Origin: Saprospiraceae bacterium | GTDB lineage: Bacteria > Bacteroidota > Bacteroidia > Chitinophagales > Saprospiraceae | Assembly (NCBI GenBank): GCA_031373665.1 | Contig: JANMMZ010000085.1 | Coordinates: forward strand, 1,389 to 65,388 | Direction of reading: 5' to 3' | Length of the DNA: 64,000 nt | Part shown: one piece after another, positions 3,897 to 39,923 of the stretch | Layout of the letters: every line of letters starts with the position of its first letter | How positions within the stretch are numbered: position 1 is the first letter of the stretch | Notes under the pieces: model-generated | The model's input: only the letters and a program-made list of their open reading frames with translations | The model's database searches: none | Told to the model about the DNA's origin: nothing | Made by a program: the position numbers and the translations under genes

Positions 3897-3971
3897 TTCA
3901 ATGATGGTGCAAATCCTACCCATCTGATGACTTCGAGTCATCAGATGGGTAGGATTTGCACCATCATTGAA
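3897..3971. repeat. Perfect 36-bp inverted repeat with a 3-nt loop, 20 nt downstream of the NTPase gene stop. Possibly a terminator or a REP-like element.
   Basis: Checked base by base: 3897-3932 pairs perfectly with 3936-3971 around the loop tcg. The arm ends carry CAATGATGG / CCATCATTG, a motif shared with the 3646-3696 palindrome. Confidence 0.9.
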
Positions 3972-6504: not shown

Positions 6505-6523
6505 ATTTGTCTGATGTGGGTAT

Positions 6524-7711
6524 TTATGCTTCATATACTGGGTTGTCGCGCTTCCAAAATGCTTGTAAAAAAGGAGAAATAAATACAAATCGGCCGCCCA
6601 AGTCAGTGATGTAACCGTCCTGTTCGAGGCCGCCCACCAATTCCATATATGTGTCTTTTTTGTTGTGCTTGATGGCCAAATCGTACAATTGTCGCGGGTT
6701 GATCTCATTTCGATGAGCGATATACACCAGTGTTTCCATCAAAAATGCGACATCCTCCTTGGTAAAATAGTCAGAGAGGCGGTTTTTCCATTCCTTGAAA
6801 TGGTCGCTGTTTTTGACCACCTTCTCAAAGGCATCATCAATATGTTGTGGCGTAATGACGATATTGTTTGCTTTTCGCGCAGCCCGGTTGATCTCATCCA
6901 ACATCAGGTTGAGAAAATAAGGAATGAAATAGTTGATCTTAGAAAGCAAGTGTTGGGTAAGAGGATCATCGTATTGAACACTAGCACTTTGGGTGGCCCA
7001 GTTGACATAATCGGCCGCTTCGCTAGGTGTCAATGCCTCGAAGGGTACGATCCCAAAGTCATTGATATCGGAAGTGCGCCCTTCTATAGTCTTCACGATG
7101 TGGTGAATGCCGACCGAACCTGCCAATACCAAACTAAAATGTTGTCGGATTTCTGGGTTTTGTCGCCACTCGCGCAGGCGATCCAAAATGCCGCTCGCTT
7201 CATTTTGTTTGCCTTTTTTATATAGATTGTTCAATATTTCGGGCAATTCATCCAAAAGCAGCACGACCTTTACCTTGTTTTGACCAATTTTGGGCAGAAT
7301 CTTATTGATTTCTTCCACGTAATTGATGGGCTTCTTTTCGCCAAATTTTACGCCCTCCAAGGTGATTTCTTCCACAGTAAGGTGTTTGAGGAGGTCGCCG
7401 AGCCAGTTTTTACCTTTTTCAAACTTGCTCAAACATTGTACGATCAGTTCAAAAAACTCTTTGTAAAACTCCGCTTCTGATTGTACGCCTTGTATATTTT
7501 TGAAAATACAACGGGTGTCCTGCGGGCAGTTTTTTTGCATGGCCAGCATGACCGATGATTTGCCCACCCTACGCGGGGCGGCCAAAAGCACATGATTGCC
7601 CTTCTGGGTTTCGGCCCATATTTGCGCCTCTATATCTGGGCGTGGGAAGTAATAATCTCCGATGGCGGTGTTTCCGATGATGATTTTCGGGTCTTTCCAA
7701 GTGGTGCTCAT
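6524..7711 (-). CDS. P-loop ATPase (archaeal-ATPase/AAA-like) with a C-terminal winged-helix-like region
   Basis: Walker A LLAAPRRVGKSSVM and Walker B VVLLLDELPE. Start placed at the ATG at 7711 (MSTTWKDPKIIIGN); the 17-codon upstream extension is unsupported. The gene ends 19 nt before the start of the next NTPase gene. Confidence 0.75.
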   Translation of the reverse strand: MSTTWKDPKIIIGNTAIGDYYFPRPDIEAQIWAETQKGNHVLLAAPRRVGKSSVMLAMQKNCPQDTRCIFKNIQGVQSEAEFYKEFFELIVQCLSKFEKGKNWLGDLLKHLTVEEITLEGVKFGEKKPINYVEEINKILPKIGQNKVKVVLLLDELPEILNNLYKKGKQNEASGILDRLREWRQNPEIRQHFSLVLAGSVGIHHIVKTIEGRTSDINDFGIVPFEALTPSEAADYVNWATQSASVQYDDPLTQHLLSKINYFIPYFLNLMLDEINRAARKANNIVITPQHIDDAFEKVVKNSDHFKEWKNRLSDYFTKEDVAFLMETLVYIAHRNEINPRQLYDLAIKHNKKDTYMELVGGLEQDGYITDLGGRFVFISPFLQAFWKRDNPVYEA

Positions 7712-9850: not shown

Positions 9851-9912
9851 GATGCCCGTTTCCACTCGCTCCGCAACGACCTCATCCCGAAAAAAAATCG
9901 GGATTACGTGCT
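9851..9912 (-). repeat. Conserved hairpin plus a vestigial permease 3' coding end (site A)
   Basis: Hairpin: atcccga (9884-9890), loop a7, tcgggat (9898-9904). On the minus strand it is followed by ATG AGG TCG TTG CGG AGC GAG TGG, which reads MRSLRSE-W, with the former stop mutated. Confidence 0.85.
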
Positions 9913-12324
9913 TTATTCGCTGCGCAGGCTCTTAACTGGATTGGACAACGCCGCTTTCACCGCCTGAAAACCCACCGTCAAAAACGCAATAACCGCCGCC
10001 GCCACACCTACTGCGACGAACACCCACCACGAGATTTCGATGCGATACGCGAAGTCAGCCAGCCATTTGTTCATGAAGTAATAAGCAATCGGAGATGCAA
10101 TGACAATGGCGACAATAACCAATTTCAAAAAATCTTTGGCCAAAAGACTTGTGATACCCGCTACCGAGGCGCCGAGTACTTTACGGATGCCGATTTCCTT
10201 CGTCCGTTGTCCAATTACAAATGCTGACAAAGCCAGTAATCCCAAGCAAGCGATGCAAATAGATAACAATGTGGCAAAAAGTAGGGCTTGCGCAAGCCGA
10301 TTTTCGCTTTCGTATATCTGTGCAAAATGCTCATCCATAAATGTGTAGTCAAACGGACGGTCTTTCACATGCCGCATCCAAACCTCCCGTGACTGGCTCA
10401 AAACCGCTTGCATATTGGCCGCGCCGACCTTCATCGAAATCACCGACGACACCTGTGAGGCTTGCATACAAATCGGTGAAATGGCGTGTCGCAGCGTATT
10501 GTGGTGCATATCGCGGATAATGCCGACTACTCGGCCAGGGGTGCTTTGGCCAAAAGTGGCACGCATGATTTCTTTGCCGATAGGGTCGTCCTTCCAGCCC
10601 ATTTTTTTTACAAACGCCTCATTTACAATGTATTCTGTCTCGTTTAATGCGCCTTCGTACGTGGGTGCCCGACCTGCCACAAATTGCATCCCGTACAAAC
10701 CGAAGTAATTGTGGTCGGCTCGGATAATGCTCATCGGGTGGTTTTCCCATTGACGGGTTTCGGGATTGCGCACCATCAAACCGTTTTGGCGGTCAATGGT
10801 GCCGAGCGATTGGTCGCTGCTGCTGACCGCTTCGACCCCGGGGATGGCCGCAAGTTCCGTTTTCAGGGCGGTTGCGTGCATCCAATTGCCGTTGCCGATG
10901 TCCATTTCCACGACCTGCGCAAAACTAAAACCCAAGTCTTTGTTTTTCAAAAAACTCAATTGCTGATAACAAATCAGCGAGCCTAACATCAATATCCCCG
11001 ACAAGGCAAATTGCACCACCACAAGGTTTTGAATGAATGGGCGTTTCAGCGAAACGGCTGTCCTGTGCTGCTGAAAGGTTTGTGTAACACCATGTCGGGC
11101 AGCTTGAATGGCAGGGTAAATGCCTGACAATAGACCGAGCAAAATAACTATCGCAGCAAACCCCAACAACACTTCTGTTGGGAAAGGCAAATCAACATCG
11201 CGCCCGAGCAGGCTCAAAAAAGGCTTGCGGATCAGGGTTGCCCAAAGCAAACCCAATGCGCCCGCTAACACTGTCATCATCAAGGATTCGCTCAAAAAAT
11301 TGCCCATAATATCGCCGCGTGATGCGCCGAGCGAGCGGCGAACCCCTACTTCTCGCCCTCGTTTTAGGGCTAATACAGTGGATAAATTAGCAAAATTGAT
11401 GCTGCTGATAAGCAAGATGAACAAGGCCAACAAGCCAAGCACACCCACGTACGCCCGATTGGAGCGAAGGTGGTTGTTTTCGTCCTCTAGGTGCATCGAA
11501 CCGAGGTGAATATCGGCAAAGGGCTGCATGGAGAGCGCGATCATTTCCGAGTTGGGCATTTCTTTTTTCAACAATTCGGCAAAAACAGGCTCTAAGGCGG
11601 CTCCATTTTGCACCGAAGGGTGGCATTGGAAATAAGTGGACGACACCACGCCATGCCAACGCGAACCGACATCCCAAGCGTCAAATCGCTGTGCATCAAG
11701 TGGAAATAAGGCATCAAATTGCAAGTGGCTGTTGGCTGGTAAATCCTTCAAAACACCCGAAACCGTGAAAAAAATCGTCGTGTCCTGACCCGAAGGCAGG
11801 GTAAAAGTGTTTTCCACGATTTTGCCGAGCGGCATTTCTGTGCCGAACAAAGCCACGCTGACCGGGAGGGTCAACAGAATGTTTTCAGGCCGTGCAAAAA
11901 CCGTTGAGGGGTCGCCCAATTGGAGCGCGTAATTGAAAAAGGAAAAAAATGAAGTATCCACTTCTAGGCACTTTTGAAGCGTCGTTTCGCGGCTGCCACT
12001 ACGGCAGAGAATGTTTTCGCTTGAAGGGAGCACCCGCAAAAAACGCTCGATGTCACCACATTCCCGGTGTAAAAAAGGCCCCATCATCGCCGATGAAAGC
12101 GCGTGGGTGCTTTCTGGCGAATTGGGATATTTGAAGGCCGTATTCAAGCGGTACAGGCTCGGATGAGCCGGGTTTATTCGGTCAAAATTGAATTCAAAAT
12201 GCAGATACACGCCGATCAACACACAAATGGCAAGGCTGACTGACAGCCCGAAAATGTTGATGGCCGAAAAATTGGCGTTTTTCCAGAGATTTCGGAAGAT
12301 GAGTTTTATTTTATGTATATACAT
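9913..12324 (-). CDS. ABC-transporter permease, duplicated FtsX/MacB type
   Basis: 803 aa. N-terminus MYIHKIKLIFRNLWKNANFSAINIFGL. Signatures GREVGVRRSLGAS and TKEIGIRKVLGAS. Ends SNPVKSLRSE. Confidence 0.9.
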   Translation of the reverse strand: MYIHKIKLIFRNLWKNANFSAINIFGLSVSLAICVLIGVYLHFEFNFDRINPAHPSLYRLNTAFKYPNSPESTHALSSAMMGPFLHRECGDIERFLRVLPSSENILCRSGSRETTLQKCLEVDTSFFSFFNYALQLGDPSTVFARPENILLTLPVSVALFGTEMPLGKIVENTFTLPSGQDTTIFFTVSGVLKDLPANSHLQFDALFPLDAQRFDAWDVGSRWHGVVSSTYFQCHPSVQNGAALEPVFAELLKKEMPNSEMIALSMQPFADIHLGSMHLEDENNHLRSNRAYVGVLGLLALFILLISSINFANLSTVLALKRGREVGVRRSLGASRGDIMGNFLSESLMMTVLAGALGLLWATLIRKPFLSLLGRDVDLPFPTEVLLGFAAIVILLGLLSGIYPAIQAARHGVTQTFQQHRTAVSLKRPFIQNLVVVQFALSGILMLGSLICYQQLSFLKNKDLGFSFAQVVEMDIGNGNWMHATALKTELAAIPGVEAVSSSDQSLGTIDRQNGLMVRNPETRQWENHPMSIIRADHNYFGLYGMQFVAGRAPTYEGALNETEYIVNEAFVKKMGWKDDPIGKEIMRATFGQSTPGRVVGIIRDMHHNTLRHAISPICMQASQVSSVISMKVGAANMQAVLSQSREVWMRHVKDRPFDYTFMDEHFAQIYESENRLAQALLFATLLSICIACLGLLALSAFVIGQRTKEIGIRKVLGASVAGITSLLAKDFLKLVIVAIVIASPIAYYFMNKWLADFAYRIEISWWVFVAVGVAAAVIAFLTVGFQAVKAALSNPVKSLRSE

Positions 12325-12423: not shown

Positions 12424-14829
12424 TCACTCACTCCGCAAAGACTTCACGGGATTCATCAACGCCGCCTTCACGCTCTGCAACCCAATCAAAATCGAAGTCA
12501 TCAAGGCCAGCCCCGCAATGGAACCGACAAAAAATAAAGGTGAAAGTTCGATCCGATAAGCATAAGCGTCCAACCAACCGCGTAGCAAATACCACGCGAG
12601 CGGGCAAGCCAACACCCCTGCGACCAGCAAAATGAGCAAAAACTCCCGCAAAAACAGTCCGATGATACCCAGTACAGAAGCGCCCAAGACCTTGCGAACG
12701 CCGACCTCTTTCATCCGCCGTTGCAAGTTGAGCGACACCAAACCCAGAACGCCAAGCAGCGCGATGAGTAAGGCCAAACCCGAAGCGGCGTAGGCTGATT
12801 TTTTCAATTGCAATTCTGTGGCGTAGATTTTTGCCAAGGCATCATCCATAAAAGCGTACTCGAACGCGCTGCCAGGCAGGAGTTCGGCCCATTTTCGTTG
12901 CAGGGCTGCCATGCTCTCGCCCACGTTTTCGGGTTGGATTTTGAAAGACAAATAGCGGTAGGTGGTGTTGTCGTTGACTGAAAGGAACAAAATCGGTTGG
13001 ATTTGCGCCGCCATTGATCCAAAATGGAAATCTTTCACCACACCCTTGATTGGAAACTGGGTAGCCCCATTGATGATATGCACCGATTGGCCGACAGCAG
13101 ATTCCGCATCCGGGAAACCGAGGGCAAGTGCGGCGCGTTCATTCAGCACCACATGTCCAGAATCGAGCCCTCGTTGCGCAAAGAATTTTCCCGCCACCAA
13201 GGGAATGTGGTAAGTGTCTAAGAATTTGTCGTCGGTCGTGAGTTGTTGGCAAACAATGGCCATCGTGGAGTCTTTTCCACTCTGAAAGACTGGGAGTTGG
13301 TTGCCGTTGTTGCCGTTCGGGATTTCAAAGGAGAGGCAGGCACTGTGTACTTGGGGCAGTTTGGCCATTTCGTCGTGCACGGTCAGCATTTTGGCCGTTC
13401 CTGCGGGTGTCCAATCGCGTGGCACTTGCGCGGACACCACAAATTCCTTGTCGTAGCCGATGTTTTTGCCAAAAAAATGGTTGACTTGCGCCGCTACGAC
13501 CACCGCTGCCACGATGACCAAATTGGCGATGCCAAACTGAAAGCCGACCAAATATTTGCGAAGCCAAAGGCTTTCGTTGGCAGAGCGCAGTTTGCCTTTC
13601 AGGGAATCCACCGTTTTCATCGAAGACAACACAAGCGCGGGGTACATGCCCGCCAAAAGGCCGATCGCAATCACCATCCCAATGGGCAACAAGACAAAAT
13701 AGCGGGGAAAGTCAGCAAAAGCAGGCAGTTTTTTGCCCACTATTTGCTCAAAATACGGTTGTGCGAGCGGGTACGCCAAAAAAGCAAGTCCCGTAGCCAC
13801 CGCCACCAAAAGCAGCGATTCGGCCAAAAACTGGGTCGCCAATTGTTGTTTCAAACCGCCAAGTGCCTTGCGCACCCCGATTTCGCGGATGCGCGTGCCA
13901 GAACGTCCAATGGACAAATTGATGAAATTCAAAATCGCCATAAACAGAATGAACAACCCCACCGACGATAAGGTGAGCAACATCCGCTTGACCAATGCCT
14001 TGTTTTTTTGGAGATAATATTCGGTGAGAGCGATGGGGCGCACAGTAAGATTTTCCTTTTCAACGTCCGTCCCCTCTTGTTGGATGAGTTGTTGGATGGG
14101 TTTTTCGAGGTCGGCGGCGACAATACCTGGTTGCAATTCGAGGTAGGTCGGGATGATGACGTTCGACCATCTATCCACGTCGTCACGACCAAAATAGGAA
14201 GCAGTATTCAGGGGTACAAACAAACAATTGGGGTCGTTGCCGAGCAATTGTGTGACAGAATTTTCAGGCAATTCCCGCAACACGCCCGTGATTTGGAATT
14301 CGCGCTTGCCGCCCGAAAAATTCTGGATCGTGAGTGTTTGGCCGACAACATCGGTTTTTCCGAAATATTTGATTGCCTTTTTTTCCGTGACGACCACCGA
14401 ATAAGGGGCAGTTAGTGCGCTGTTGGGGTCTCCGTGCAGCAGTTCAAAGCCAGACATGGGCAACAAAGTGCTGTCGCCAATCTGAATGCCCTCGCGGAAA
14501 ATCTTGTCGCCCGTAGCCACGCCCGACGTGATGCCGTCCCAACGGTAATAATTGGACACCAAATGCGGGTAAACTTCCTTCAAACGCTTGCCCAAAGGAC
14601 CAGCTGTGGTAAGATCCATGCCGAGGTCGGGATTTTTCCAGATACTGGTCAAAAAATATTGCTGGTCAGCGTGGCGAAGGTTATGGTTCACCTGCAACTC
14701 GCCCCAAACAAATACCCCGATGAGCAGGACAAAGAGCATACCTGCCCACAACCCAAATACGTTAAGCGCGGAGTAGAACGCGTTTTTTTGGAGGTTGCGA
14801 AGGGCGAGTTTAAGATGATTTTGCAGCAT
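12424..14829 (-). CDS. ABC-transporter permease, duplicated FtsX/MacB type
   Basis: 801 aa. N-terminus MLQNHLKLALRNLQKNAFYSALNVFGL. Signatures IREIGVRKALGG and MKEVGVRKVLGAS. Ends MNPVKSLRSE. Confidence 0.9.
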   Translation of the reverse strand: MLQNHLKLALRNLQKNAFYSALNVFGLWAGMLFVLLIGVFVWGELQVNHNLRHADQQYFLTSIWKNPDLGMDLTTAGPLGKRLKEVYPHLVSNYYRWDGITSGVATGDKIFREGIQIGDSTLLPMSGFELLHGDPNSALTAPYSVVVTEKKAIKYFGKTDVVGQTLTIQNFSGGKREFQITGVLRELPENSVTQLLGNDPNCLFVPLNTASYFGRDDVDRWSNVIIPTYLELQPGIVAADLEKPIQQLIQQEGTDVEKENLTVRPIALTEYYLQKNKALVKRMLLTLSSVGLFILFMAILNFINLSIGRSGTRIREIGVRKALGGLKQQLATQFLAESLLLVAVATGLAFLAYPLAQPYFEQIVGKKLPAFADFPRYFVLLPIGMVIAIGLLAGMYPALVLSSMKTVDSLKGKLRSANESLWLRKYLVGFQFGIANLVIVAAVVVAAQVNHFFGKNIGYDKEFVVSAQVPRDWTPAGTAKMLTVHDEMAKLPQVHSACLSFEIPNGNNGNQLPVFQSGKDSTMAIVCQQLTTDDKFLDTYHIPLVAGKFFAQRGLDSGHVVLNERAALALGFPDAESAVGQSVHIINGATQFPIKGVVKDFHFGSMAAQIQPILFLSVNDNTTYRYLSFKIQPENVGESMAALQRKWAELLPGSAFEYAFMDDALAKIYATELQLKKSAYAASGLALLIALLGVLGLVSLNLQRRMKEVGVRKVLGASVLGIIGLFLREFLLILLVAGVLACPLAWYLLRGWLDAYAYRIELSPLFFVGSIAGLALMTSILIGLQSVKAALMNPVKSLRSE

Positions 14830-14897: not shown

Positions 14898-17276
14898 TCA
14901 CTCACTCCGCAGCGACTTCACCGGATTCGCCAAAGCCGCCTTCACACTCTGAAAACCCACCGTTAAAAACGCGATCCCCATCGCCGCCGCGCCCGCTGCC
15001 GCAAACATCCACCATTGAATATCAATGCGATAGGCAAAGTCGGAGAGCCATTGATTCATGAAATAATACGCGACTGGGGAGGCGATGACGATGGCGATGA
15101 GCACCAATTTCAAGAAGTCTTTGGCCAAAAGACTTGTGATAGATGCAATGGATGCACCGAGTACTTTGCGGATACCGATTTCTTTGGTGCGCTGCTCGGC
15201 AGCAAAAACAGTTAGGCCAAACAGTCCTAAACAGCCAACAAAAATGGTCAGACAGGCAAACAGAAAAATAATGCTTGCCATCTGTTGGTCATTTTTGTAC
15301 GAATCATGGATGGCTGCGTCCACGAAACTAAATTCCATCGGTGTTTCCGTTTCGTAGTTTTTGTAGGTTTTTTCCAATTGCGTGATGGCTTCTTCGGTTT
15401 TGCCCACCGCTGTTTTTACAAACATAGAAAAATACGGTGCCCAAGGTTGGTAGCGAAAAATAAAGGGTTCGATACCCGAATTGAGCGATTTGAAATGAAA
15501 ATCTTTTACCACGCCAATGACAGGGCCTGTTGCGCCCCAAAAAGTGACTTGCTTGCCGATCACCTCATTGACCGTAAAGCCCATCCGCTTGACGGCGGTT
15601 TCATTGAGGATATAATTGTTGATCGTATCGGTTATCTCTTGCGGCGGGAAATTAGTACCGCTCATCAACTGCATCCCAAGCGCGGGGATAAAGGTCGGGT
15701 CAACGTTTGCACCGACGGTTAAAAACACCTCCGACGCTTGCATCCCTTTCCATTTCAAATCCGCAGAATTGTCCACGTTTACAAGCGACATCGTAGCGGG
15801 TGCGGCAGTGACAATCGCACTTTGTTTTTCCAAATCTTGCTTCAACAACGCGGATTTGTCTCTCAAACCACCTTTCAAACGCAGCGTTATCAGTTGTTCT
15901 TTGTTGAATCCAAGGTCGTATTGTTGCATAAATCGCAGTTGATTATACATCAAAAACGAGCAAATCATCAAGACGATGGAAATGCCAAACTGAAAAACCA
16001 CCAAGCCCTGTTGGAGGGTTTTACCCGATTGTTTGGTATTCGTATTTTTTAAATTTCTAAGAGGCTTGAAAGCCGACATGATAAAGGCGGGATAAATACC
16101 TGCCACCAACCCGATGATAAAGACAAATGCAAGGAAAAATCCGAGCAATAAAGACGGAGTAAATGAAATAGACACGACCTTATCAGTCAGATCATAGACG
16201 AGCGATTGTAATCTCTGAAACGGCACAATCGCAACAATACCCGCAAGGCTTGTAATCAGCAAGGATTCGCATAAAAACTGGACAATCAATTGTTTGCGCG
16301 ATGCACCATTGACTTTTCGCACGCCTACTTCCAACGATCTTTTCAAAGAACGCGCTGTCGAAAGATTGATAAAATTGAAGCATGCAATCAGCAACAAAAG
16401 CAATCCAACGGCGGCGAATATCTTGACATATTTCGCATTGCTGCGTTTGCCCCAATCGGTTTGAAAATCAAATTTAGAATACAGGTATTGCGCTTTCAGC
16501 GGCTGCAATTGCAGTAAATCCTCTGTTTTGTCGTTATAAACGTGTAGTTGGTTTTTTATCTTTTCCGCAAATGCTGGCACATCCGCTTTCGGATTTAGTT
16601 GGACGTAGGTGTGCCAACTATTGCTGCCCCATTTGTTCGACCATTCATCTATTTTGAGCAGAAGAGGTTTCGGCAACAACACTTGGAACTGAATGCTTGA
16701 ATTTTCAGGCGGGTTTTGGACAATACCCGCTAATTTGAAGTTAAATTCATTGTTCAGTACAAAAATCTGTCCCAACAGGGAGGGCTTGCTTTGCCAATCT
16801 TGACCGAAGTATTTTTCCGCGACGTTTTCTGTTATCACAATGTCGTCAAGCGATTGCAAAGCCGTTTTGCTATCGCCTTGGAGCAAAGGAAAATTGAAGA
16901 CACTAAACAGGCTGTTTTCGGTTATCAATATCTTTTTTTCCTCAAAAACATTTATGTCGTTCTTCAACGTACCGCTCCATTGCATGAAACTAACGGTGTT
17001 CACAACCTCTGGAAAATCCTTTTGCAAAGCCGGCGCCAATGGGCCTGGCGTAACGGCTACATCATAAAGTTTCCCTGCTTGAATTTGCTTTTCCGTTACG
17101 CGATAGATGTTGTCAACATTAGAGTGAAAAGTATCATAATGCACTTCATTCCAAATAAAAACACCAATCACCAAGCAACAAGCCATGCTTAATGCCAAGC
17201 CAATGATATTGACCAGAGAATACACTTTGTTGTTCCAGATATTGCGAAAGGCAATTTTTAAGTTGAAGGTAAACAT
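14898..17276 (-). CDS. ABC-transporter permease, duplicated FtsX/MacB type
   Basis: The track ORF extends to 17426. The paralogue-consistent start is the ATG at 17276 (MFTFNLKIAFRNIWNNKVYSLVNIIGL). The 50-codon extension runs through the hairpin/pseudo-end region. Signatures SLEVGVRKVNGAS and TKEIGIRKVLGAS. Ends ANPVKSLRSE. Confidence 0.9.
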   Translation of the reverse strand: MFTFNLKIAFRNIWNNKVYSLVNIIGLALSMACCLVIGVFIWNEVHYDTFHSNVDNIYRVTEKQIQAGKLYDVAVTPGPLAPALQKDFPEVVNTVSFMQWSGTLKNDINVFEEKKILITENSLFSVFNFPLLQGDSKTALQSLDDIVITENVAEKYFGQDWQSKPSLLGQIFVLNNEFNFKLAGIVQNPPENSSIQFQVLLPKPLLLKIDEWSNKWGSNSWHTYVQLNPKADVPAFAEKIKNQLHVYNDKTEDLLQLQPLKAQYLYSKFDFQTDWGKRSNAKYVKIFAAVGLLLLLIACFNFINLSTARSLKRSLEVGVRKVNGASRKQLIVQFLCESLLITSLAGIVAIVPFQRLQSLVYDLTDKVVSISFTPSLLLGFFLAFVFIIGLVAGIYPAFIMSAFKPLRNLKNTNTKQSGKTLQQGLVVFQFGISIVLMICSFLMYNQLRFMQQYDLGFNKEQLITLRLKGGLRDKSALLKQDLEKQSAIVTAAPATMSLVNVDNSADLKWKGMQASEVFLTVGANVDPTFIPALGMQLMSGTNFPPQEITDTINNYILNETAVKRMGFTVNEVIGKQVTFWGATGPVIGVVKDFHFKSLNSGIEPFIFRYQPWAPYFSMFVKTAVGKTEEAITQLEKTYKNYETETPMEFSFVDAAIHDSYKNDQQMASIIFLFACLTIFVGCLGLFGLTVFAAEQRTKEIGIRKVLGASIASITSLLAKDFLKLVLIAIVIASPVAYYFMNQWLSDFAYRIDIQWWMFAAAGAAAMGIAFLTVGFQSVKAALANPVKSLRSE

Positions 17277-17305
17277 AATTTTATATTTATATTTTTTTAA
17301 ATGTG

Positions 17306-17403
17306 TTATTCGCTCCGCAAACTTTTCATCCCGAAGAAGAATCGGGATTCCATCACTCTGAACGGAGCGACTTGATCCCGAAAAAAAATCGGGATTTCGT
17401 GCC
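17306..17403 (-). repeat. Two conserved hairpins, each followed by a vestigial KSLRSE-stop coding end (site B)
   Basis: Hairpins at 17375-17395 (loop a7) and 17328-17348 (loop agaagaa). The minus strand reads TAA ggcacgaa HAIRPIN c AAG TCG CTC CGT TCA GAG TGA tgga HAIRPIN g AAA AGT TTG CGG AGC GAA TAA. Confidence 0.9.
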
Positions 17404-19839
17404 TTATTCGCTGCGCAGGCTCTCAACAGGATTCGCCAATGCTGCTTTCACACTCTGAAAACCCACCGTCAAAAACGCAATCAGCATGGCTGCTAAACCC
17501 GCAGTTACGAACATCCACCATTGAATATCAATGCGATACGCGAAATCGGCGAGCCATTTATTCATAAAGTAGTAGGCAATGGGCGAAGCGATGACAATGG
17601 CGATGACGACGAGTTTTAGGAAGTCTTTGGCTAACAAGCCCGTGATACCCGCTACCGAGGCACCGAGCACTTTTCGGATGCCGATTTCTTTGGTGCGTCT
17701 TTCGGCGGTGAAAGCAGCCAAGCCAAACAAGCCCAGACAGGCCACAAAAATGGCGATGCCAGCGGCAAGCAATGCCAACACGCCTGTGCGCCTGTCGCTC
17801 CGGTACATCTGATCGAACTGCTCGTTCATGAACTCGTAATCGAAGGGCAGTCCCGGCCCGTTTTTTTGCCAAATAGCCTGGATTTCTGCCAACGTGCCTT
17901 GCACATCGCCGTTTTGAAGGCGAAAACTGATGTTACCCGAGTAATTGCTTTGAATCAGCACCAACGGCTCCACTTTGTTGCGGAGGTTTTCAAAATTGAA
18001 ATCTTCCACCACGCCAATGATTTTCCAATCGGTGAGGCCCTTTGATGCGCCGTCGGACACATCCACTGTGTACAAATTTTGATCAATGGGATTGGCAAAA
18101 CCGAGCATTTTGGCCGCCGATTGGTTGATAATGACGGCATTGGAATCCGCCGGGGAGCCTTCCCTGAAATTGCGGCCAGCCGCCATTCGGATGCCGAGGG
18201 TTGGGATGTAGCCAGCGTCCACTTTCCAGTCGTTTAAGGAAATTGCGTTCTCAGCACTGGTATTTCTGTCCTTGAAAAAGCCGTTGTTGTTGCCATTGCC
18301 ATTGGTCGGCAAATAACCGGTGACTGTGCAGTGTGTGACTTTTGGCAATTGTAATATTTCGTTTTTGAGGATTTGGGCTTTATCGCCCAAAGATTGGGTG
18401 CCGTTGAGGATCAAAACTTGTTCGCGATCGTAGCCGAGGTCTTTGTGCTGTATGAAATCCAATTGTCTATACACGACCAAAACGCCCACAATAAGGAGTA
18501 TGGAGGTCGAAAACTGGAAGGTGACGAGGCCATTGCGCAATAGCTTGCCGCCCGCCCCGCTCGTTAATTGCCCCTTGAGCACGCGCACCGGACTAAAGGC
18601 CGACAGGAAGAATGCCGGATAAAGACCCGACAAAAGACCCGTCAAAATCGTGAAGCCGATCAAAATGGCTATCAACCAAGGGCGTTGGATAAAATCGAAG
18701 GCGATGTGTTTTTCTGTCAAATTATTGAATGCGGGTAACAAAGTCGCTGTCGCCAGCACCGCAATACTCATGGCAAGGCTGCTCACCAATAGTGATTCGG
18801 ACAAAAACTGGCTTACCAATTGGTTTTTTTGCGAACCCAATGCCTTCCGAACGCCTACCTCCCGTGCCCGCATCGAGGAGCGGGCTGTGCTTAGGTTCAT
18901 AAAATTAACCACAGCCAGTACCAAAACAAATAAAGCAATAGCCGAAAACACCCATACCAATTCGATACTCCCAGGGGGACGCAAAGCCCCCGATTGTGCG
19001 CCTGCATACAGGTGGATGTCGGTCAGAGGTAGCAACTTGAACTCGTAGCGGGTGCCAGCCTTCAGCATGTCATCCCAAGAAGTATTAAGTATTTGTTGGG
19101 CCTGTCCGCCGATGTGTTTTCGGACGATTTTGGGCAGTTCCGGGGCAAAAGCAACAGCATCCGCGCCTTTTTGGAACAAAATATAGGTGTGAAAATTGCT
19201 ACTTAACCATGCATCCTCTGCACTCTCGGCAAGCGTGGACATGCTCATCAAAAAATCGAATTGAAAATGACTATTTTCCGGCATGTCGCGCACGACTCCG
19301 CTGATTTCGTACTGGTCTTCCTTACTGTTCAAGGAAAGTGACTGACCAAGTGCATCGCCTTTTGGGAAATATTTGTTGGCAATCGTCTCGCTGATGACCA
19401 GGGTGTACGGTCGTACCAAAGCCGTTTTCGGGTCGCCTGCCACCAAGGGCAGGCTGAATACCCGAAACAAAGTGCTGTCCGCTAAAATCGCCTGGTTTTC
19501 TTCAAACAATTGGTCGCCCTTCCAGACGGGCAAATGTCCAAAATTGCGCAAACGGCAGGTTGTTTCCACCTGCGGATATTCTCGCGCCAGCAAAGGGCCG
19601 AGCGGCGCCGGAGCCTCAATGACGTTGGACTCGGCACCCCCAAAATTGATCTCGGAATCAATCCGGTAAATGCGGTTTGCATGGACATTGAAGCGGTCGA
19701 AACTTAGTTCGTCCAGCACCCACAACGCGATGAGTAAGCAACAAGTGAGGCCTAACGCCAAGCCGAGAATGTTGATGGCCGCAAAACCACGCTGTTTGCG
19801 GAGATTGCGCCAGGCGAGTTTGAAATAGTTAGTTAGCAT
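17404..19839 (-). CDS. ABC-transporter permease, duplicated FtsX/MacB type
   Basis: 811 aa. N-terminus MLTNYFKLAWRNLRKQRGFAAINILGL. Signatures AREVGVRKALGS and TKEIGIRKVLGAS. Ends ANPVESLRSE. Confidence 0.9.
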   Translation of the reverse strand: MLTNYFKLAWRNLRKQRGFAAINILGLALGLTCCLLIALWVLDELSFDRFNVHANRIYRIDSEINFGGAESNVIEAPAPLGPLLAREYPQVETTCRLRNFGHLPVWKGDQLFEENQAILADSTLFRVFSLPLVAGDPKTALVRPYTLVISETIANKYFPKGDALGQSLSLNSKEDQYEISGVVRDMPENSHFQFDFLMSMSTLAESAEDAWLSSNFHTYILFQKGADAVAFAPELPKIVRKHIGGQAQQILNTSWDDMLKAGTRYEFKLLPLTDIHLYAGAQSGALRPPGSIELVWVFSAIALFVLVLAVVNFMNLSTARSSMRAREVGVRKALGSQKNQLVSQFLSESLLVSSLAMSIAVLATATLLPAFNNLTEKHIAFDFIQRPWLIAILIGFTILTGLLSGLYPAFFLSAFSPVRVLKGQLTSGAGGKLLRNGLVTFQFSTSILLIVGVLVVYRQLDFIQHKDLGYDREQVLILNGTQSLGDKAQILKNEILQLPKVTHCTVTGYLPTNGNGNNNGFFKDRNTSAENAISLNDWKVDAGYIPTLGIRMAAGRNFREGSPADSNAVIINQSAAKMLGFANPIDQNLYTVDVSDGASKGLTDWKIIGVVEDFNFENLRNKVEPLVLIQSNYSGNISFRLQNGDVQGTLAEIQAIWQKNGPGLPFDYEFMNEQFDQMYRSDRRTGVLALLAAGIAIFVACLGLFGLAAFTAERRTKEIGIRKVLGASVAGITGLLAKDFLKLVVIAIVIASPIAYYFMNKWLADFAYRIDIQWWMFVTAGLAAMLIAFLTVGFQSVKAALANPVESLRSE

Positions 19840-19914: not shown

Positions 19915-19965
19915 CTACTCACTCCGCAGCGACTTCATCCCGAAAAAAAATCGGGATTTCGTGCC
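19915..19965 (-). repeat. Conserved hairpin plus a vestigial KSLRSE-stop coding end (site C)
   Basis: Hairpin at 19937-19957 (atcccga a7 tcgggat). On the minus strand it is followed by ATG AAG TCG CTG CGG AGT GAG TAG. Confidence 0.9.
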
Positions 19966-22389
19966 TTATTCGCTGCGCAGGCTCTCAACAGGATTCGCCA
20001 ATGCTGCTTTCACACTCTGAAAACCCACCGTCAAAAACGCAATCAGCATGGCCGCCGCACCCGCAGTTACGAACATCCACCATTGAATATCAATCCGATA
20101 CGCGAAATCGGCGAGCCATTTATTCATAAAGTAGTAGGCAATGGGCGAAGCGATGACAATAGCGATCACAACCAATTTCAAAAAGTCTTTGGTTAGCAAG
20201 CCCGTGATGCCTGCTACCGAAGCACCAAGTACTTTTCGGATACCCATTTCCTTTACTTTTGATTCGATTGTGAATGATACCAACCCAAACAAGCCCAAGC
20301 AAGCAATAAATATGGCCCACAAGGACGCTGCCGCAAACAACCAAGAGTATTGCTGTTCACTGAGGTATGCTTTTTGAAAATTATCGTCGGCAAAAAAGTA
20401 TTCAAATGGATTTCCACTAAAATACTGCCCATATATTTTTTCTAAGGCAGCGATTTTTGCTGGTAAATCGTTGGCCGTAAGCCTTACGGTAAAGTAGGCA
20501 CTGTTGTTTTGCGGGTAATACAAGATCGGCTCGATCGGTTTTTGTAAACTTGTATGATGGTAATCTTTCACCACGCCCACAATGTCTAGGTACCGCTCGT
20601 CCCATTTTATTTTTGTCGTAAGGGCCTCTTCCGCTGTTAATCCCAGCGAAGCGAGGGCCTTTTCATTGACCAAAATTTTGCTATTGTCATTCCATTCTAT
20701 ATTGCATTCGGCACCAGTGAAATTGCGCCCTGTACGCAAGGGCAATCCATATACATCTAAGAATCGCTCGCCGATGATGGCAAAATTGTACGATTTTTCC
20801 TCGTCATTGGGCTTAGATTTTGGAGAGGTAAACCCAGCGGTAGCAAAATTATAACCCTCACTTGGCACACTACCCGTCGCACAATAATCCTGTACAAAAT
20901 TCTGGGTAGCGATGGCGTTCCCAAACCCTGTTTTTCTAAACTTGTAGGTGCTGTCACGGCCTATTTCAGGCCCTCTGATCACCAGCAATTGCTCGGTATT
21001 GATGCCCAACTCTTTGTTTTGCATGTATTTTAATTGGCTATATATAACCACCGTAAATAAGATCAATACCGTGGAAATGCCAAATTGTGCCACCACCAAT
21101 GTTTGGCGTAACCGCAGTCCACTGACGGATTTGGTCAGTTTGCCTCTTAGGGTTTCTATAGGATTGTAGCGTGCAATAGCATTGGCTGTAAAAGCACCAG
21201 ATAAAAGAGAGCCTAAGAACAACGCACCCAAACCATAAAGCCAGACACGGGTTTGGAATAGTGCGGATAGGTCAAGGGTTTTGCCGATGACAAGGTTGAA
21301 AAGCGGTTGCAATGCGACAATTAATATAACTGCCAAGGTTAGGGCCAATAAGTTAACGACCAGTGTTTCGCTCAGAAACTGGGCAATCAACGTGCCTTTA
21401 CTTGCACCGATGGCCTTTCGAACGCCCACCTCTTTGGCTCTGCGGAGGGCATTGGCAGTGCTTAAATTGACGTAGTTAAACCAAGCAATGAGCAGGATCA
21501 AGAATCCAATACCAGCCAGCATGTAAACGTACCGAACATTGCCAGTGTGGAACAAGTTATCGGTGAAATTATTAGCCAAATGTGTTTCCCCAAATGCTTG
21601 AAGTCGGAAAGACACCGCATCTTTTTCAGGTTGAAGGTTGCGACGTAGGGCTGTCAATTTTTGCTCCAATGCTACCGGATCAGAATGCTGATCGAGGAGG
21701 AAAAACATATTGGTGAATTGAGAATCTAGGTTATCCAACCTAGCCCAACCGTTTTCGTTCAGATTGGCTTCATTTTTCAAGGTTTCCAAGGAAAAAACCA
21801 TGTCAAAACGGATATCTGAATTTTCACCCATGTCTTCAAAAACACCTCCCACGATGTAGCGATGGTTTCCAAATTGATTATATAAGGTCAAGGATTTTTC
21901 CAAAGGATTTTCTTGCCCAAAATACTTTTTAGCGTATGATTTTGAAATAAAAACCACATCAGGCTGTTTTAATGCGGCAGCGTCTCCTTGGATCACTGGG
22001 AAACTGAAGAACTCAAAGAAATTGCCTTCTCCATAGCAGACATTCTTCTCCCGATAAGATAGGTTTTTTGCCTCGTTTTTGACAATCCCTTGGCCAATCC
22101 CTTCCCCAAATCGGCAAAATGCCTTGATTTCAGGGAAATTCTCCGTTGATTTTGTTGCCCAACCAGGTTCTACCTCCGGCCATGATTTTCCGTCTGAACT
22201 TTGGCACAAAACACGGTACATCTGGGGTAGTTTTGTATGAAACCGATTGACACTTTGCTCCAAACTAACGTATTGTAGGATCAAAGCAAAGGCAGTAATG
22301 CCCAAAGCCAATCCAGCAATGTTGAGCGCACTATACATACGGCGGCTGCTTAGGCTGCGCCATGCCATTTTGAAATGATTGTATATCAT
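19966..22389 (-). CDS. ABC-transporter permease, duplicated FtsX/MacB type
   Basis: 807 aa. N-terminus MIYNHFKMAWRSLSSRRMYSALNIAGL. Signatures AKEVGVRKAIGAS and VKEMGIRKVLGAS. Ends ANPVESLRSE. The start lies only 4 nt after the stop of the upstream paralogue. Confidence 0.9.
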   Translation of the reverse strand: MIYNHFKMAWRSLSSRRMYSALNIAGLALGITAFALILQYVSLEQSVNRFHTKLPQMYRVLCQSSDGKSWPEVEPGWATKSTENFPEIKAFCRFGEGIGQGIVKNEAKNLSYREKNVCYGEGNFFEFFSFPVIQGDAAALKQPDVVFISKSYAKKYFGQENPLEKSLTLYNQFGNHRYIVGGVFEDMGENSDIRFDMVFSLETLKNEANLNENGWARLDNLDSQFTNMFFLLDQHSDPVALEQKLTALRRNLQPEKDAVSFRLQAFGETHLANNFTDNLFHTGNVRYVYMLAGIGFLILLIAWFNYVNLSTANALRRAKEVGVRKAIGASKGTLIAQFLSETLVVNLLALTLAVILIVALQPLFNLVIGKTLDLSALFQTRVWLYGLGALFLGSLLSGAFTANAIARYNPIETLRGKLTKSVSGLRLRQTLVVAQFGISTVLILFTVVIYSQLKYMQNKELGINTEQLLVIRGPEIGRDSTYKFRKTGFGNAIATQNFVQDYCATGSVPSEGYNFATAGFTSPKSKPNDEEKSYNFAIIGERFLDVYGLPLRTGRNFTGAECNIEWNDNSKILVNEKALASLGLTAEEALTTKIKWDERYLDIVGVVKDYHHTSLQKPIEPILYYPQNNSAYFTVRLTANDLPAKIAALEKIYGQYFSGNPFEYFFADDNFQKAYLSEQQYSWLFAAASLWAIFIACLGLFGLVSFTIESKVKEMGIRKVLGASVAGITGLLTKDFLKLVVIAIVIASPIAYYFMNKWLADFAYRIDIQWWMFVTAGAAAMLIAFLTVGFQSVKAALANPVESLRSE

Positions 22390-30407: not shown

Positions 30408-30458
30408 TTCATACATATACAACAAGTTTATTTTTTAATAAATATAGACATCGGCAAA

Positions 30459-30556
30459 TCACTCGCTGCGCAGGCTCTTCATCCCGAAGGAAAATCGGGA
30501 TTCCATCACTCACTTCGGAGTGATTTTATCCCGAAGAAAAATCGGGATTTCGTGCC
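30459..30556 (-). repeat. Two conserved hairpins, each followed by a vestigial KSLRSE-stop coding end (site D)
   Basis: Hairpins at 30528-30548 (loop agaaaaa) and 30481-30501 (loop aggaaaa). The minus strand reads TAA ggcacgaa HAIRPIN a AAA TCA CTC CGA AGT GAG TGA tgga HAIRPIN g AAG AGC CTG CGC AGC GAG TGA. Confidence 0.9.
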
Positions 30557-33016
30557 TTATTCGCTGCGCAGGCTCTTAACTGGATTGGCCAAAGCCGCTT
30601 TCACCGACTGGAAACCTACTGTCAAAAACGCAATCAATACCGCTGCCAAGCCAGCCACTGCGAATATCCACCACGAAATATCAATCCGATAAGCGAAGTC
30701 GGCAAGCCAATTATTCATAAAGTAATAAGCAATTGGCGAAGCAATTAGGATCGCAATGACAACTAATTGTAGGAAATCTTTGGCCAAAAGCCCCGTGATG
30801 CCCGCAATAGATGCACCTAGTACCTTTCGGATGCCTATTTCTTTGATTCGCTGCTCCGCAGCATAGGTAGCCAGACCAAACAAGCCAATGCAAGCGATGA
30901 AAATCGCCGCTATTGCCGCCCAAATCAACATGGCTTCACGGCGGGCATCTTCGGTATAAAAAAGAGCCAATTGCTGGTCGAGGTAATGGTATTCAAACAG
31001 TTCATCAGGATCAATTTTTGCTAAAATACCTTCCATCGCTTTTATGGTGGTGGCAGCGTCTTTTGATTCGATTCTTGAAGTATAATAATCAATGTTTTGA
31101 ACGGGATTTTGCCGATACGCCAAGACCAAAGGGGCAATTTTTTCTCTTAATGTCTGAAAATTGAAATCTTTTACTATCCCAATCACCCGGGCTTTAAATG
31201 CCTGATTGCCACGAAGCGGGACATACGTTCCGCCGTATGATGCAGCCGGAATTTCAATCAATTGATCAGATGGCTCTGTGATATTTAGGAGTTTGGCCGC
31301 CGTTTCATTTAATAAAACAGAGGAAGTATCGCCCAAACCGCTGAAATTTTTGCCTTTCAATAATTCTACCTCAAAGGTATTGGAAAAATGCTCATCCACG
31401 CCTAACAAATATGAAACTTTCTGTTCATCAGGATAGCCCATTTGCCTTATTTTAACACTGGGAATATTTTTCCATTCACCTGGCACCCGTGAAGTAGTGG
31501 ATACATTTTTTACATTGGGTATTTTTTCAAATTCTGAAACGATGGTGGAGGCTGCTCTTCTTATCGTGCCACTGTTGATATCCACGACCACCAAAAGGTC
31601 TTTATTGAACCCCAAATCTTTGCTGTTGACGAAACGAACTTGCAAAAACATCACGATGGTTGCAATGATCATAAATACAGATACCGAAAATTGGAAAACA
31701 ACCAAGCCTTTTCGCAAAGAAAAACCTGATTTGTCTTGAATTTTTAGACTTTTCAATAACATATTAGGGCTAAATTGGGAAAGCATCAATGCTGGATAAG
31801 AGCCTGATAATATACCTGTCAAGATAGCCACACTAAATGATGCAACCCAAATCCTATAATCGGTTGAAAAACCAAGTGAGAGTTGTTTGTTGGTAAATTC
31901 ATTGAAAAACGGGATCATTAAATTGACCAATAAAATAGCCAAAACAAAAGAAAATAGCGTTACCAATACTGATTCTACCAGAAATTGTGTTACCAATTGC
32001 CCTTTAAATGCACCCACAACCTTTTTTATCCCAATCTCTTTGCTGCGATTGGAGGCTTTAGCAGTAGTGAGATTCATATAGTTGATACAAGCAATCATCA
32101 ATACAAAAAGAGCGACCAACGCAAATATTTTCACGTACAAAAGATACCCTGTGCCGGCTCCCAATTGATTGAAGTTTCTGGCACCATCCGTAATGCTTTC
32201 GGAATGAAGGTGAACATCTTTGAGTGGCTGAAGGCTATAGGCCAATGATACACCCAGTGCTGGCTTATAGTTGGCATTGACCAATTGCCCTAGTTTTTGT
32301 GAAACAGCGACAAGGTTGGCATCTTTTCGGAGCAGCGTATAAACGGAATATTCGCTTGAGCCCCAATCGCTATTCACCTCATTTACATAACTGGAATCAG
32401 CATAATAGGTGCTTTCGGAATAAACAGAACTAAAATCAAAACTTGAATTCCGAGGATGATTTTTAAGCACTGCGGTAACAGTAAATGGTTGTTCATAGCC
32501 TTGCCATTTCAACGTCTTTCCGGCTACTTGTGTACTGCCAAAAAGTTGAAGGGCCAACGCTTCCACAATGACAATGGAGTTGGGAGCCGTCAAAGCCGTT
32601 TTGGGATTACCATCAAGGGCTTCAAAATCAAATATCTCCATTAAACCATTGTTGGCAACCGTGATTTCTTCATTCACTTTTTTCTGATCTGCCAAGTTTT
32701 CAAGCATATCTCTACCCCCTTGTGCCATGCGGGCTGTATTTTCAATTTCTCCAATACTGATTTTCGATGCTTCCGCCAGTTTGTAACTTGCTCCTGCTAT
32801 TTTAACATCCTCATCGGGTGATTTTCTGTGCTTGATAACACGGCATATTCGATCAGCATTGGTATGATGACTGTCGTAGGTAATCTCATCAATGACGTAA
32901 AGGCCTAATATCAAAAAACAGGCAAGACCGAAGGTCAGGCCAGCGATGTTTAGCACTGCGTGGAGTTTGTTTCTGAAGAGATTTCGGACAGCGATTTTTA
33001 GATAATTGGATACCAT
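30557..33016 (-). CDS. ABC-transporter permease, duplicated FtsX/MacB type (first gene of the array in transcription direction)
   Basis: Start set at the ATG at 33016 (MVSNYLKIAVRNLFRNKLHAVLNIAGL). Signatures SKEIGIKKVVGAF and IKEIGIRKVLGAS. Ends ANPVKSLRSE. Confidence 0.9.
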   Translation of the reverse strand: MVSNYLKIAVRNLFRNKLHAVLNIAGLTFGLACFLILGLYVIDEITYDSHHTNADRICRVIKHRKSPDEDVKIAGASYKLAEASKISIGEIENTARMAQGGRDMLENLADQKKVNEEITVANNGLMEIFDFEALDGNPKTALTAPNSIVIVEALALQLFGSTQVAGKTLKWQGYEQPFTVTAVLKNHPRNSSFDFSSVYSESTYYADSSYVNEVNSDWGSSEYSVYTLLRKDANLVAVSQKLGQLVNANYKPALGVSLAYSLQPLKDVHLHSESITDGARNFNQLGAGTGYLLYVKIFALVALFVLMIACINYMNLTTAKASNRSKEIGIKKVVGAFKGQLVTQFLVESVLVTLFSFVLAILLVNLMIPFFNEFTNKQLSLGFSTDYRIWVASFSVAILTGILSGSYPALMLSQFSPNMLLKSLKIQDKSGFSLRKGLVVFQFSVSVFMIIATIVMFLQVRFVNSKDLGFNKDLLVVVDINSGTIRRAASTIVSEFEKIPNVKNVSTTSRVPGEWKNIPSVKIRQMGYPDEQKVSYLLGVDEHFSNTFEVELLKGKNFSGLGDTSSVLLNETAAKLLNITEPSDQLIEIPAASYGGTYVPLRGNQAFKARVIGIVKDFNFQTLREKIAPLVLAYRQNPVQNIDYYTSRIESKDAATTIKAMEGILAKIDPDELFEYHYLDQQLALFYTEDARREAMLIWAAIAAIFIACIGLFGLATYAAEQRIKEIGIRKVLGASIAGITGLLAKDFLQLVVIAILIASPIAYYFMNNWLADFAYRIDISWWIFAVAGLAAVLIAFLTVGFQSVKAALANPVKSLRSE

Positions 33017-39336: not shown

Positions 39337-39372
39337 TTACGAATGTTTAATTACGAATATTTAATTACGAAT
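39321..39372. repeat. Four AATTACGAAT repeats with a 14-nt period, upstream of the four-helix-bundle ORF
   Basis: aattacgaat occurs at 39321, 39335, 39349 and 39363. Confidence 0.9.
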
Positions 39373-39379
39373 CACAAAA

Positions 39380-39805: not shown

Positions 39806-39923
39806 TAAAAATATAAAAACTATAACTCAATTAAAATACAAAATCGTAATTCGTAATTCACAATTCGTAATTAAAAATTCGTAATTCGTAATTAAAAATT
39901 CGTAATTAAAAATTCGTAATTAA
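39727..39923. mobile_element. Palindromic AATTACGAAT / ATTCGTAATT repeat block between the four-helix-bundle ORF and hsdR
   Basis: aattacga at 39743, 39763 and 39784 forms the left arm, with a ~20-nt period. Seven tcgtaatt copies lie between 39844 and 39921 and form the right arm, in inverse orientation. The last repeat abuts the hsdR ATG at 39924. Confidence 0.8.

Follow-up and report, generated by a model that had tools for sequence, protein, structure and literature searches.

In a 64,000-nucleotide (nt) stretch of a Saprospiraceae bacterium genome (GenBank assembly GCA_031373665.1, contig JANMMZ010000085.1, positions 1,389 to 65,388 of the forward strand; hereafter the window), four permease genes end in a short cassette made of surrogate last codons, a stop codon and a hairpin, and the former last codons of the gene can still be read behind it. 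This is a real, recurrent and lineage-restricted mini-cassette of 44-51 nt that replaces the tails of permease genes, with the old tails stacked behind. The cassette is discrete, occupies a fixed site, enters by clean insertion, leaves relics that decay, and is patchily distributed across orthologues. It looks like a new, small kind of repeat element that mimics a gene end. An earlier reading of the window from its letters alone (the original prediction) had supposed that no equivalent had been described, and our literature searches for one found none.

Permease ends in the window

The host genes belong to a tandem array of ten MacB_PCD/FtsX permease paralogues (1062-33049, minus strand), which we delimited by domain scans and comparison of coding ends. 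These genes encode about 800 amino acids each, every gene scanned carries a MacB_PCD and/or FtsX domain, and the C-terminal ends across the ten paralogues conform to NP(V/A/I)xSL(R/K)SE, preceded by A. The window paralogues are ancient, with 22-43% amino acid identity to one another. A cassette lies behind four of the ten genes (g9913, g17404, g19966 and g30557), and the other six are without one.

The original prediction of six ATCCCGA/TCGGGAT hairpins behind four permeases was borne out. The pattern ATCCCGA-N7-TCGGGAT has six exact matches in the window (at 9884, 17328, 17375, 19937, 30481 and 30528) and none in 100 dinucleotide-preserving shuffles; when three mismatches were allowed, extra matches elsewhere in the window appeared only at chance level. 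All six hairpins are on the minus strand, directly 3' of the permease genes. The order on that strand is functional tail, stop codon, an 8-nt spacer (GGCACGAA or AGCACGTA), hairpin, one base, and a 21-nt relic of a permease tail. At the two-layer sites (B and D) this relic is succeeded by TGGA, another hairpin, a single base and another KSLRSE-stop; the hairpin-to-hairpin spacing is 47 nt at both. The vestigial ends were expected to encode the same peptide in all six cases; five read KSLRSE-stop, but the sixth (9862-9882) is slightly decayed and reads RSLRSEW, with AGG and TGG codons. Similarly, the expectation of pyrimidine-rich loops holds for the window copies, which have pyrimidines only, but not for a variant found elsewhere (type D, below), whose loops are CGAAGC and similar.

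At site B, behind g17404, a cassette of type A (17376-17426; the types are described in the next section) comprises the TT of the Val codon, the ESLRSE codons, the stop TAA (17404-17406), the spacer GGCACGAA (17396-17403) and the hairpin less its last T. This hairpin, ATCCCGA-TTTTTTT-TCGGGAT, is the pattern match at 17375-17395 and is followed by a C and by the first relic (17353-17373), AAG TCG CTC CGT TCA GAG TGA, which reads KSLRSE-stop. The same relic, together with TGGA (17349-17352) and the second hairpin (17328-17348, ATCCCGA-TTCTTCT-TCGGGAT, followed by a G), makes up a buried type B cassette. Behind it lies the second relic (17306-17326), AAA AGT TTG CGG AGC GAA TAA, again KSLRSE-stop, which is identical at 20 of 21 bases to the functional tail of g1062. 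All of these elements are on the minus strand, as are those of the other three sites.

Site A, behind g9913 (9862-9936), has a type A cassette at 9885-9935, with its stop at 9913-9915, the spacer AGCACGTA, the hairpin at 9884-9904 and the RSLRSEW relic. Site C, behind g19966 (19915-19989), has a type A cassette at 19938-19988 (stop 19966-19968, hairpin 19937-19957) and a KSLRSE-TAG relic at 19915-19935 that matches the functional tail of g14898 at 20 of 21 bases. Site D, behind g30557 (30459-30580), begins with a type A cassette (stop 30557-30559, hairpin 30528-30548) and a first relic at 30506-30526, AAA TCA CTC CGA AGT GAG TGA, and continues with TGGA, the hairpin at 30481-30501 and a second relic at 30459-30479, AAG AGC CTG CGC AGC GAG TGA. 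The listed 842-amino-acid open reading frame (ORF) at 14898-17426 is g14898 extended 5' through the relic tails and hairpins of site B, its real start being the ATG at 17285; gene callers could mis-extend other genes lying downstream of such stacks.

Cassette types, insertion and turnover

The copies in the window and at loci fetched from other assemblies (L numbers) fall into four types. In each, the surrogate last codons and stop are followed, after 0-13 nt, by a hairpin whose stem core TCCCGA/TCGGGA is common to all four. Type A, (G)TT RAG AGC CTG CGC AGY GAA TAA followed by RGCWCGWA and the hairpin, occurs in the window and at L041. Type B, TCN CTC CGN NNN GAG TGA followed by TGGA or GGAA and the hairpin, makes up the buried layers in the window and at L041. 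Type C/C', (G)TT RAG TCA CTC CGT TCG GAG TGA followed by CGAA or GGAA and a hairpin with loop TTTTTCT, was found at L037, L085, L103, L104, L120, L129, L133 and L142. Type D, GCG CGT TCG CT(A/G) AAA AGC GAA TAA (NPARSLKSE-stop), passes at once into G-TCCCGAC-N6-GTCGGGA-T, then a G and the relic tail (L151 and L160).

Insertion takes place within the Val codon of the conserved A-N-P-V-K-S-L-R-S-E end, at AAYCCNG^TNAAG, and the junction is at the same phosphodiester in all four types. The host gene keeps a full-length C-terminus, and the resident tail is displaced behind the hairpin and decays there. The Val codon of the functional tail is G plus TT in types A-C (GTT in 14 of 15, GTG only at L008), whereas the 36 hairpin-less tails compared have GTG in 27 cases and GTT in two. 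The resident Val codon supplies the final T of the hairpin (its second base) and the variable base that comes next (its third). Copies of the same type are 94-100% identical, compared with 50-90% over the 30 nt upstream (100% only for g17404 against g19966), 57-87% for the relic tails and 53-84% for the gene bodies. Across genomes, C and C' copies differ at one or two of 47 positions, and the host orthologues at L037 and L129 are 78.5% identical in DNA; the chance of so few differences at that divergence is 0.001.

The cassette folds as two tandem hairpins, and in three of the four types the tail codons form the first. Folding energies lie between -8 and -10 kcal/mol for the tails of types B, C and D, and 0.07% of random synonymous encodings are at -8 kcal/mol or lower; in type A, the tail and its spacer pair with each other. 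The SLRSE-stop codons of this permease family can be encoded as a near-perfect palindrome, TCA CTC CGN NCG GAG TGA, and 22% of the hairpin-less permease tails in the window and the fetched loci fold at -5 kcal/mol or lower, versus 4% of random synonymous encodings. At L037 (1930-2005) a 1-nt deletion in the cassette tail has caused a frameshift, and the permease ORF there reads through the hairpin (ending ...VESSVRSDSIPIFLRD and a stop), the stop being a TGA made by the last T of the hairpin and the relic. A permease end without a hairpin at L150 (4327-4345) continues with TAA AGCATATAATCCCTA, of which 12 of 15 bases match the type A spacer and left arm (TAA AGCACGTAATCCCGA). A 3' flank so like type A is unique among the 161 fetched loci, and could be a progenitor or a remnant of that type.

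Outside the window, a genome scan (one genome per species, pattern ATCCCGA-Y7-TCGGGAT, at least 119 stretches) was complemented by two further searches. Cassettes among the matches listed include at least five sites in a Lewinellaceae metagenome-assembled genome (MAG; L037, L103, two at L104, and L120), those of two Saprospiraceae MAGs (L041 and L085), and one in a MAG labelled KSB1 (L008), a label that may reflect binning. A metagenome scan that required an upstream L-R-x-E-stop gave four relevant loci only and added L129, L133 and L142. Protein-led retrieval, which used no hairpin pattern, recovered type D in GCA_965185395.1 (two copies at L151 and one at L160). The total among the matches listed is 18 sites with 20 intact hairpins and one decayed, in seven assemblies; at least 14 of the sites lie outside the window, in six other assemblies (Saprospiraceae, Lewinellaceae and the KSB1-labelled MAG). 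Every one of the 20 intact hairpins of cassette architecture among those matches is at a permease tail and has a relic behind it. The protein-led sampling also covered about 40 further permease ends in relatives that had no cassette, and its positives came from one genome only.

The most direct view of the insertion comes from L151, where an empty and a filled permease end lie on one contig. The empty end, at position 97, reads GTG AAG AGT TTG CGG AGT GAG TAA and then CGTACCTCGAAACACC; the filled type D end, at position 13770, has the same downstream flank. Positions 1-190 and 13675-13910 are collinear and about 93% identical on both flanks, and the difference between them is a clean 44-nt insertion, CGCGTTCGCTAAAAAGCGAATAAGTCCCGACCTAAGCGTCGGGA, between AATCCGG and TGAAG, after the first base of the Val codon. 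Comparison of the empty and filled ends revealed neither target duplication nor base loss. The buried tail carries three changes in 23 nt, including AAG>TAG and AGT>CGT, as expected of a neutral relic.

Taken together, the relics form a series of increasing decay, with 15 of 21 intact and six with defects. Those at L085 (S>T) and L142 (S>P) have a single defect, those at site A and of the L151 copy at 13770 have two, and those at L008 and in the third layer of L041 are heavily decayed, the third-layer hairpin of L041 having decayed as well. At L085 (3305-3445) a permease 3' remnant of about 95 nt and a type C cassette directly follow the stop of a divergent permease (NPVDGLKVE-stop), and there the functional-type and relic tails are near-perfectly complementary (-33 kcal/mol), unlike at all other sites.

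Presence of the cassette differs between orthologues. The gene g30557, with two layers in the window, has orthologues at amino acid identities of 83%, 78% and 74% (Haliscomenobacter hydrossis) with no cassette, and g17404, also with two layers, has an orthologue of 70% identity (L001) with none. Conversely, g22394 has no cassette in the window, and its orthologue of 72% identity (L041) has three layers, its last 350 nt resembling the 3' ends of g17404 and g19966; g1062, likewise without one, has an orthologue of 61% identity (L120) with type C. On these comparisons, cassette turnover is fast and does not track gene phylogeny. The ends of g17404 and g19966 differ at only five positions between -195 and +29, a span that takes in the stop, spacer and hairpin, and they diverge from +30. 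This stretch is a recent conversion tract with its 3' edge at the hairpin foot.

In the original prediction, the relics were genuine gene ends displaced by an incoming segment that carried a new coding end and the hairpin. The clean insertion at L151 agrees with this, as do the far greater likeness of the cassettes than of their flanks, the match of relics to the functional tails of other paralogues, the missing cassettes of orthologues and the graded decay of relics. The accompanying proposal, that the hairpin is a 14-nt snap-back into the ANPV codons, had to be abandoned: the whole hairpin lies inside the insert, the resident ANP codons are intact upstream of the new tail, and local alignments of the spacer and left arm to the gene's own AALANP coding end are no better than those of shuffles (p 0.22-0.54).

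Displaced gene ends have precedents on a larger scale. The e14 prophage brings a replacement 3' end into Escherichia coli icd and leaves a displaced C-terminal pseudogene, icdC, with mainly synonymous differences (PMC13626634, citing Hill et al. 1989). The two systems share an incoming surrogate 3' end, an original end that persists downstream and a regenerated target that makes repeat insertion possible; e14, however, is about 15 kb long with its own site-specific recombination system, whereas the cassette has 44-51 nt and no enzyme, and its targets are the members of a multi-copy gene family, behind which as many as three layers accumulate. The cassette unit codes for nothing beyond the tail, and neither an integrase of its own nor att sites are part of it. 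Polymorphic toxins (Rhs, CdiA and MafB) also accumulate displaced orphan C-terminal modules, their old 3' ends being stacked by recombination at a conserved motif; these modules are long, encode different toxins and are accompanied by immunity genes. In contrast, every cassette layer encodes the same (K/E)SLRSE peptide, and nothing is diversified.

Candidate routes of cassette spread

We give roughly even credence to a model in which the two-hairpin cassette with its surrogate tail is copied between paralogues by a short-homology-guided copy-paste, the relic serving as right homology arm. The route would be gene conversion or template switching between paralogues. A donor strand would consist of the conserved ...AAYCCNG, the cassette, and TNAAG... 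of the relic, with the coding end as left arm and the relic tail as right arm. The folded cassette would loop out between these arms, whose junction would then mimic an uninterrupted normal tail; in this state the strand could pair with the intact ...CCNG-TNAAG... end of any paralogue, and the cassette would be copied in. If the recipient already holds a cassette, pairing of its functional tail with a donor relic would add a further layer, and each relic would have been a functional tail until the last insertion event. We infer this route, and likewise any role of the hairpins in RNA, from the arrangement of the copies.

Copy-paste of this kind would account for the fixed junction, for the relic behind every hairpin, for the stacking of layers, and for the homogenisation of hairpin-bearing paralogues up to the hairpin foot. 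It would also account for the real-tail synonymous codons of the relics and for their mostly intact look. The normal tail at L151 position 97 recurs unchanged over 23 nt as the type D relic at L160, which would make a perfect right homology arm of that length. The scanned window ORFs of at least 150 amino acids include no transposase, recombinase or reverse transcriptase, and we count this in favour of copy-paste.

Several observations weigh against this model. At the filled L151 site, flanking markers (5 nt away on the left, 6-8 nt away on the right) mismatch the other type D copy of the contig, so that with that donor the arms would be only 4-5 nt long, too short for RecA-type conversion; a transposition-like precise insertion suits this site equally well. 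The stem is invariant where neighbouring synonymous sites are saturated, although for types A-C this is partly built into the genome scan, in which the stem was fixed, and the copies free of that bias are those of type D and of the window. Moreover, the identical 21-mer with loop TTTTTCT occurs in at least 22 unrelated Bacteroidota contexts. Passive copy-paste leaves such stem conservation unexplained, which hints at a hairpin-specific factor or function. Finally, the loci compared did not include an identifiable founder event.

A bolder reading, which we regard as rather unlikely, is that the cassette is a tail-mimic element that is actively mobilised. It would then be the smallest known unit to home into the 3' end of a gene family with its own replacement C-terminus. 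Its mover would be either a hairpin-specific single-strand transposase or reverse transcription from hairpin-terminated mRNA 3' ends, and its hairpin would be a recognition module shared with Flavo-1 RNA and other Bacteroidota repeats.

The main rival to copy-paste, rather unlikely in our estimate, is a non-autonomous, hairpin-ended mini transposable element, either associated with palindromes like the insertion sequences (IS) of the IS200/IS605 family or resembling repetitive extragenic palindromes (REPs) and their REP-associated tyrosine transposases (RAYTs). A single-strand transposase acting in trans would insert it 3' of AAYCCNG, and the surrogate tail would have evolved for harmlessness. 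IS200/IS605 elements have subterminal palindromes, insert beside a short specific sequence and excise precisely (PMC3201880, PMC5027513). The cassette resembles them in having two tandem hairpins per unit, one at each end, no terminal inverted repeats, a fixed short target without duplication, and sharp edges between which copies remain 94-100% identical over diverged paralogues and genomes; the same hairpin also recurs in other Bacteroidota repeat families and tandem arrays. It differs in that its two palindromes are not alike and cleavage would not lie away from the hairpin feet: the first hairpin (TCACTCCG/CGGAGTGA, or TTCGCT/AGCGAA) is unrelated to the second (TCCCGA/TCGGGA), and the right edge is the hairpin foot itself rather than a point at a distance. 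The first hairpin is wholly different between types, being constrained to encode the tail, and tracks the local tail variants SLRSE, SLKSE and SLRYE. No transposase was found in the window or beside any fetched copy, and none of the 20 copies among the matches listed is off-family, though neutral intergenic insertions should persist.

The likeness to REPs and to bacterial interspersed mosaic elements is that these too are short multi-copy palindromes just behind stop codons between co-oriented genes, sometimes in arrays. The GTAG or CGTC tetranucleotide that tags REPs (PMC3733652) is not what flanks the cassette hairpins, where the 5' flanks are CGAA, GGAA, TGGA, CGTA and TAAG and the 3' flank is a T and a K or E codon. 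The cassette also differs in that it includes coding sequence, inserts inside an ORF and has a strict family preference (six of six window copies at one gene family), and no RAYT was found among the scanned ORFs of the window.

We consider it improbable that nothing was inserted at all, and that each relic is the leftover of a deleted paralogue, everything between a terminal hairpin and the following gene's Val codon having been lost. The arrays are tandem and the relics match the tails of other paralogues, in keeping with such deletions, and L085 has its 3' permease remnant right after the stop of another permease; the founder cassette may have arisen in this way. The filled and empty copies at L151, however, are collinear and alike on both sides, which makes the 44-nt difference an insertion before the gene's own tail. 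The L160 cassette lies outside any array, the precursor state (a hairpin without a relic) was not seen among the matches listed, and four cassette types share one phosphodiester junction.

That replication slipped at the hairpin and duplicated the last ~47 nt, the copies then diverging in place, is very improbable and largely refuted, in agreement with the original prediction, which had set simple tandem duplication aside. The equal 47-nt spacing at both two-layer sites would suit it, and the same 21-mer does occur in true tandem arrays in Pelobium and Lacinutrix. Nevertheless, functional tails and relics are separated by multi-step synonymous switches (Ser AGC to TCG, Arg CGA to AGG) that non-coding copies could not attain in place. 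The last unit never has a hairpin behind it, so that hairpins number one fewer than ends; Tandem Repeats Finder reports no array at the window sites; and the identity profile of cassettes and flanks is unlike that of a local duplication.

Least probable of all is that relics are kept by selection, either for stop-codon read-through or for pairing with the functional tail, in which case they would form the 3' side of one long RNA hairpin. In its favour, the in-frame peptide GTKSRFFFG(M/I)KSLRSE does exist at three window sites, 15 of the 21 relics show no defect, the RNA fold of the two-layer site at 30450-30580 has a z of -4.4, and the L085 tails are complementary. A read-through function is not supported, since the frame is owed to the 8-nt spacer of type A only and the other types are out of frame (26 nt from stop to relic in B and C) or carry in-frame stops (type D, as does site A). 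Relics also decay, the hairpins lack a U tail, and matched functional and relic tails do not exceed mismatched pairs in complementarity (permutation p = 0.73).

Three other candidates were rejected. The hairpins are not intrinsic terminators, as they are followed by N-AAG or N-GAG with no U tract and a terminator scan listed none of them. An integron-like crossover at G^TT does not fit type D, which reads as inserting at G^CG with its right junction at A^T. A diversity-generating retroelement is contradicted by differences between functional tails and relics that are synonymous and involve all four bases rather than adenines, and no reverse transcriptase domain was found in the scanned window ORFs.

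The hairpin beyond permeases and the meaning of the cassette

The original prediction had also made the hairpin specific to the permease family. The preference is strict in the window and the lineage, but the identical 21-mer is widespread in Bacteroidota. In the genome scan, at least 47 of the 130 matches listed have the loop TTTTTCT, and it is these that lie in the 22 or more unrelated flank contexts (Pedobacter, Flavobacterium, Chryseobacterium and others); at least 22 matches listed have a T7 loop, mostly A-rich upstream and T-rich downstream as in bidirectional terminators. Two contexts are hits of Flavo-1 RNA (RF01705), scoring 71.9 and 47.6 bits, in which the 21-mer forms the apical stem-loop, and Flavo-1 hits sharing the apical stem-loop ATCCCGA-T5(C/T)T-TCGGGAT come from Flavobacterium and Pedobacter. 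The Flavo-1 hits of Flavobacterium psychrophilum occur in both orientations relative to transcribed regions, and many lie outside them (PMC9723704). The Flavo-1 covariance model at its gathering threshold had no match in the window, L104 or L151, and none within 17250-17480 at E values up to 10; no Rfam family was matched by the cassettes themselves. Only the apical hairpin is common to both, and the cassettes have permease tails in place of the outer arms.

The tandem arrays mentioned above contain the exact 21-mer ATCCCGATTTTTCTTCGGGAT with identical linkers, in Pelobium (L054, 1646-1894) with a 57-nt period and at least five copies up to the contig end, and in Lacinutrix (L067, 813-1144) with a 40-nt period. 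Other repeats were seen as well. At 3897-3971 of the window, just 3' of a STAND-NTPase/TPR gene, lies a perfect inverted repeat (36 bp, 3-nt spacer) with the centre TGACTCGAAGTCA; a GC-rich palindrome with a 13-14-bp stem, right behind a permease tail at L002/L003, has this centre too, which suggests that these palindromes are a second palindromic repeat family in these genomes. Within the STAND NTPase gene at 3991-6708, a 96-nt tandem repeat (4418-4963, 5.7 copies, 90% identity) corresponds to TPR units whose DNA is unusually homogeneous. A type I restriction-modification locus has repeats in three stretches of the window (39318-39925, 35310-35392 and 37091-37163): arrays of AATTACGAAT-type units, in opposite orientations, flank about 470 nt between a Fic gene and hsdR, the same pair of units also lies within hsdM, and a 24-nt repeat is present three times at the start of hsdS. 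These repeats might be regulatory or related to phase variation.

The cassette demonstrates that a repeat element of 44-51 nt can settle harmlessly in a coding region by bringing a surrogate gene end, and that it leaves a readable stack of former ends behind. From such stacks one can read in what order and at what tempo ancient paralogues have exchanged sequence, and for annotators they mean that ORFs and 'read-through' peptides behind such genes are fossils. The findings also tie Flavo-1 and related unexplained Bacteroidota repeats to a concrete insertion process with a visible footprint. If the relic tail is truly a homology arm, the cassette would be a natural template for scarless 3'-end knock-ins with self-folding inserts; movement by an enzyme would instead make it a new, minimal class of site-specific mobile DNA, and if it is mobilised through a shared hairpin module, the orphan Flavo-1 and related Bacteroidota repeats would gain a mechanism.

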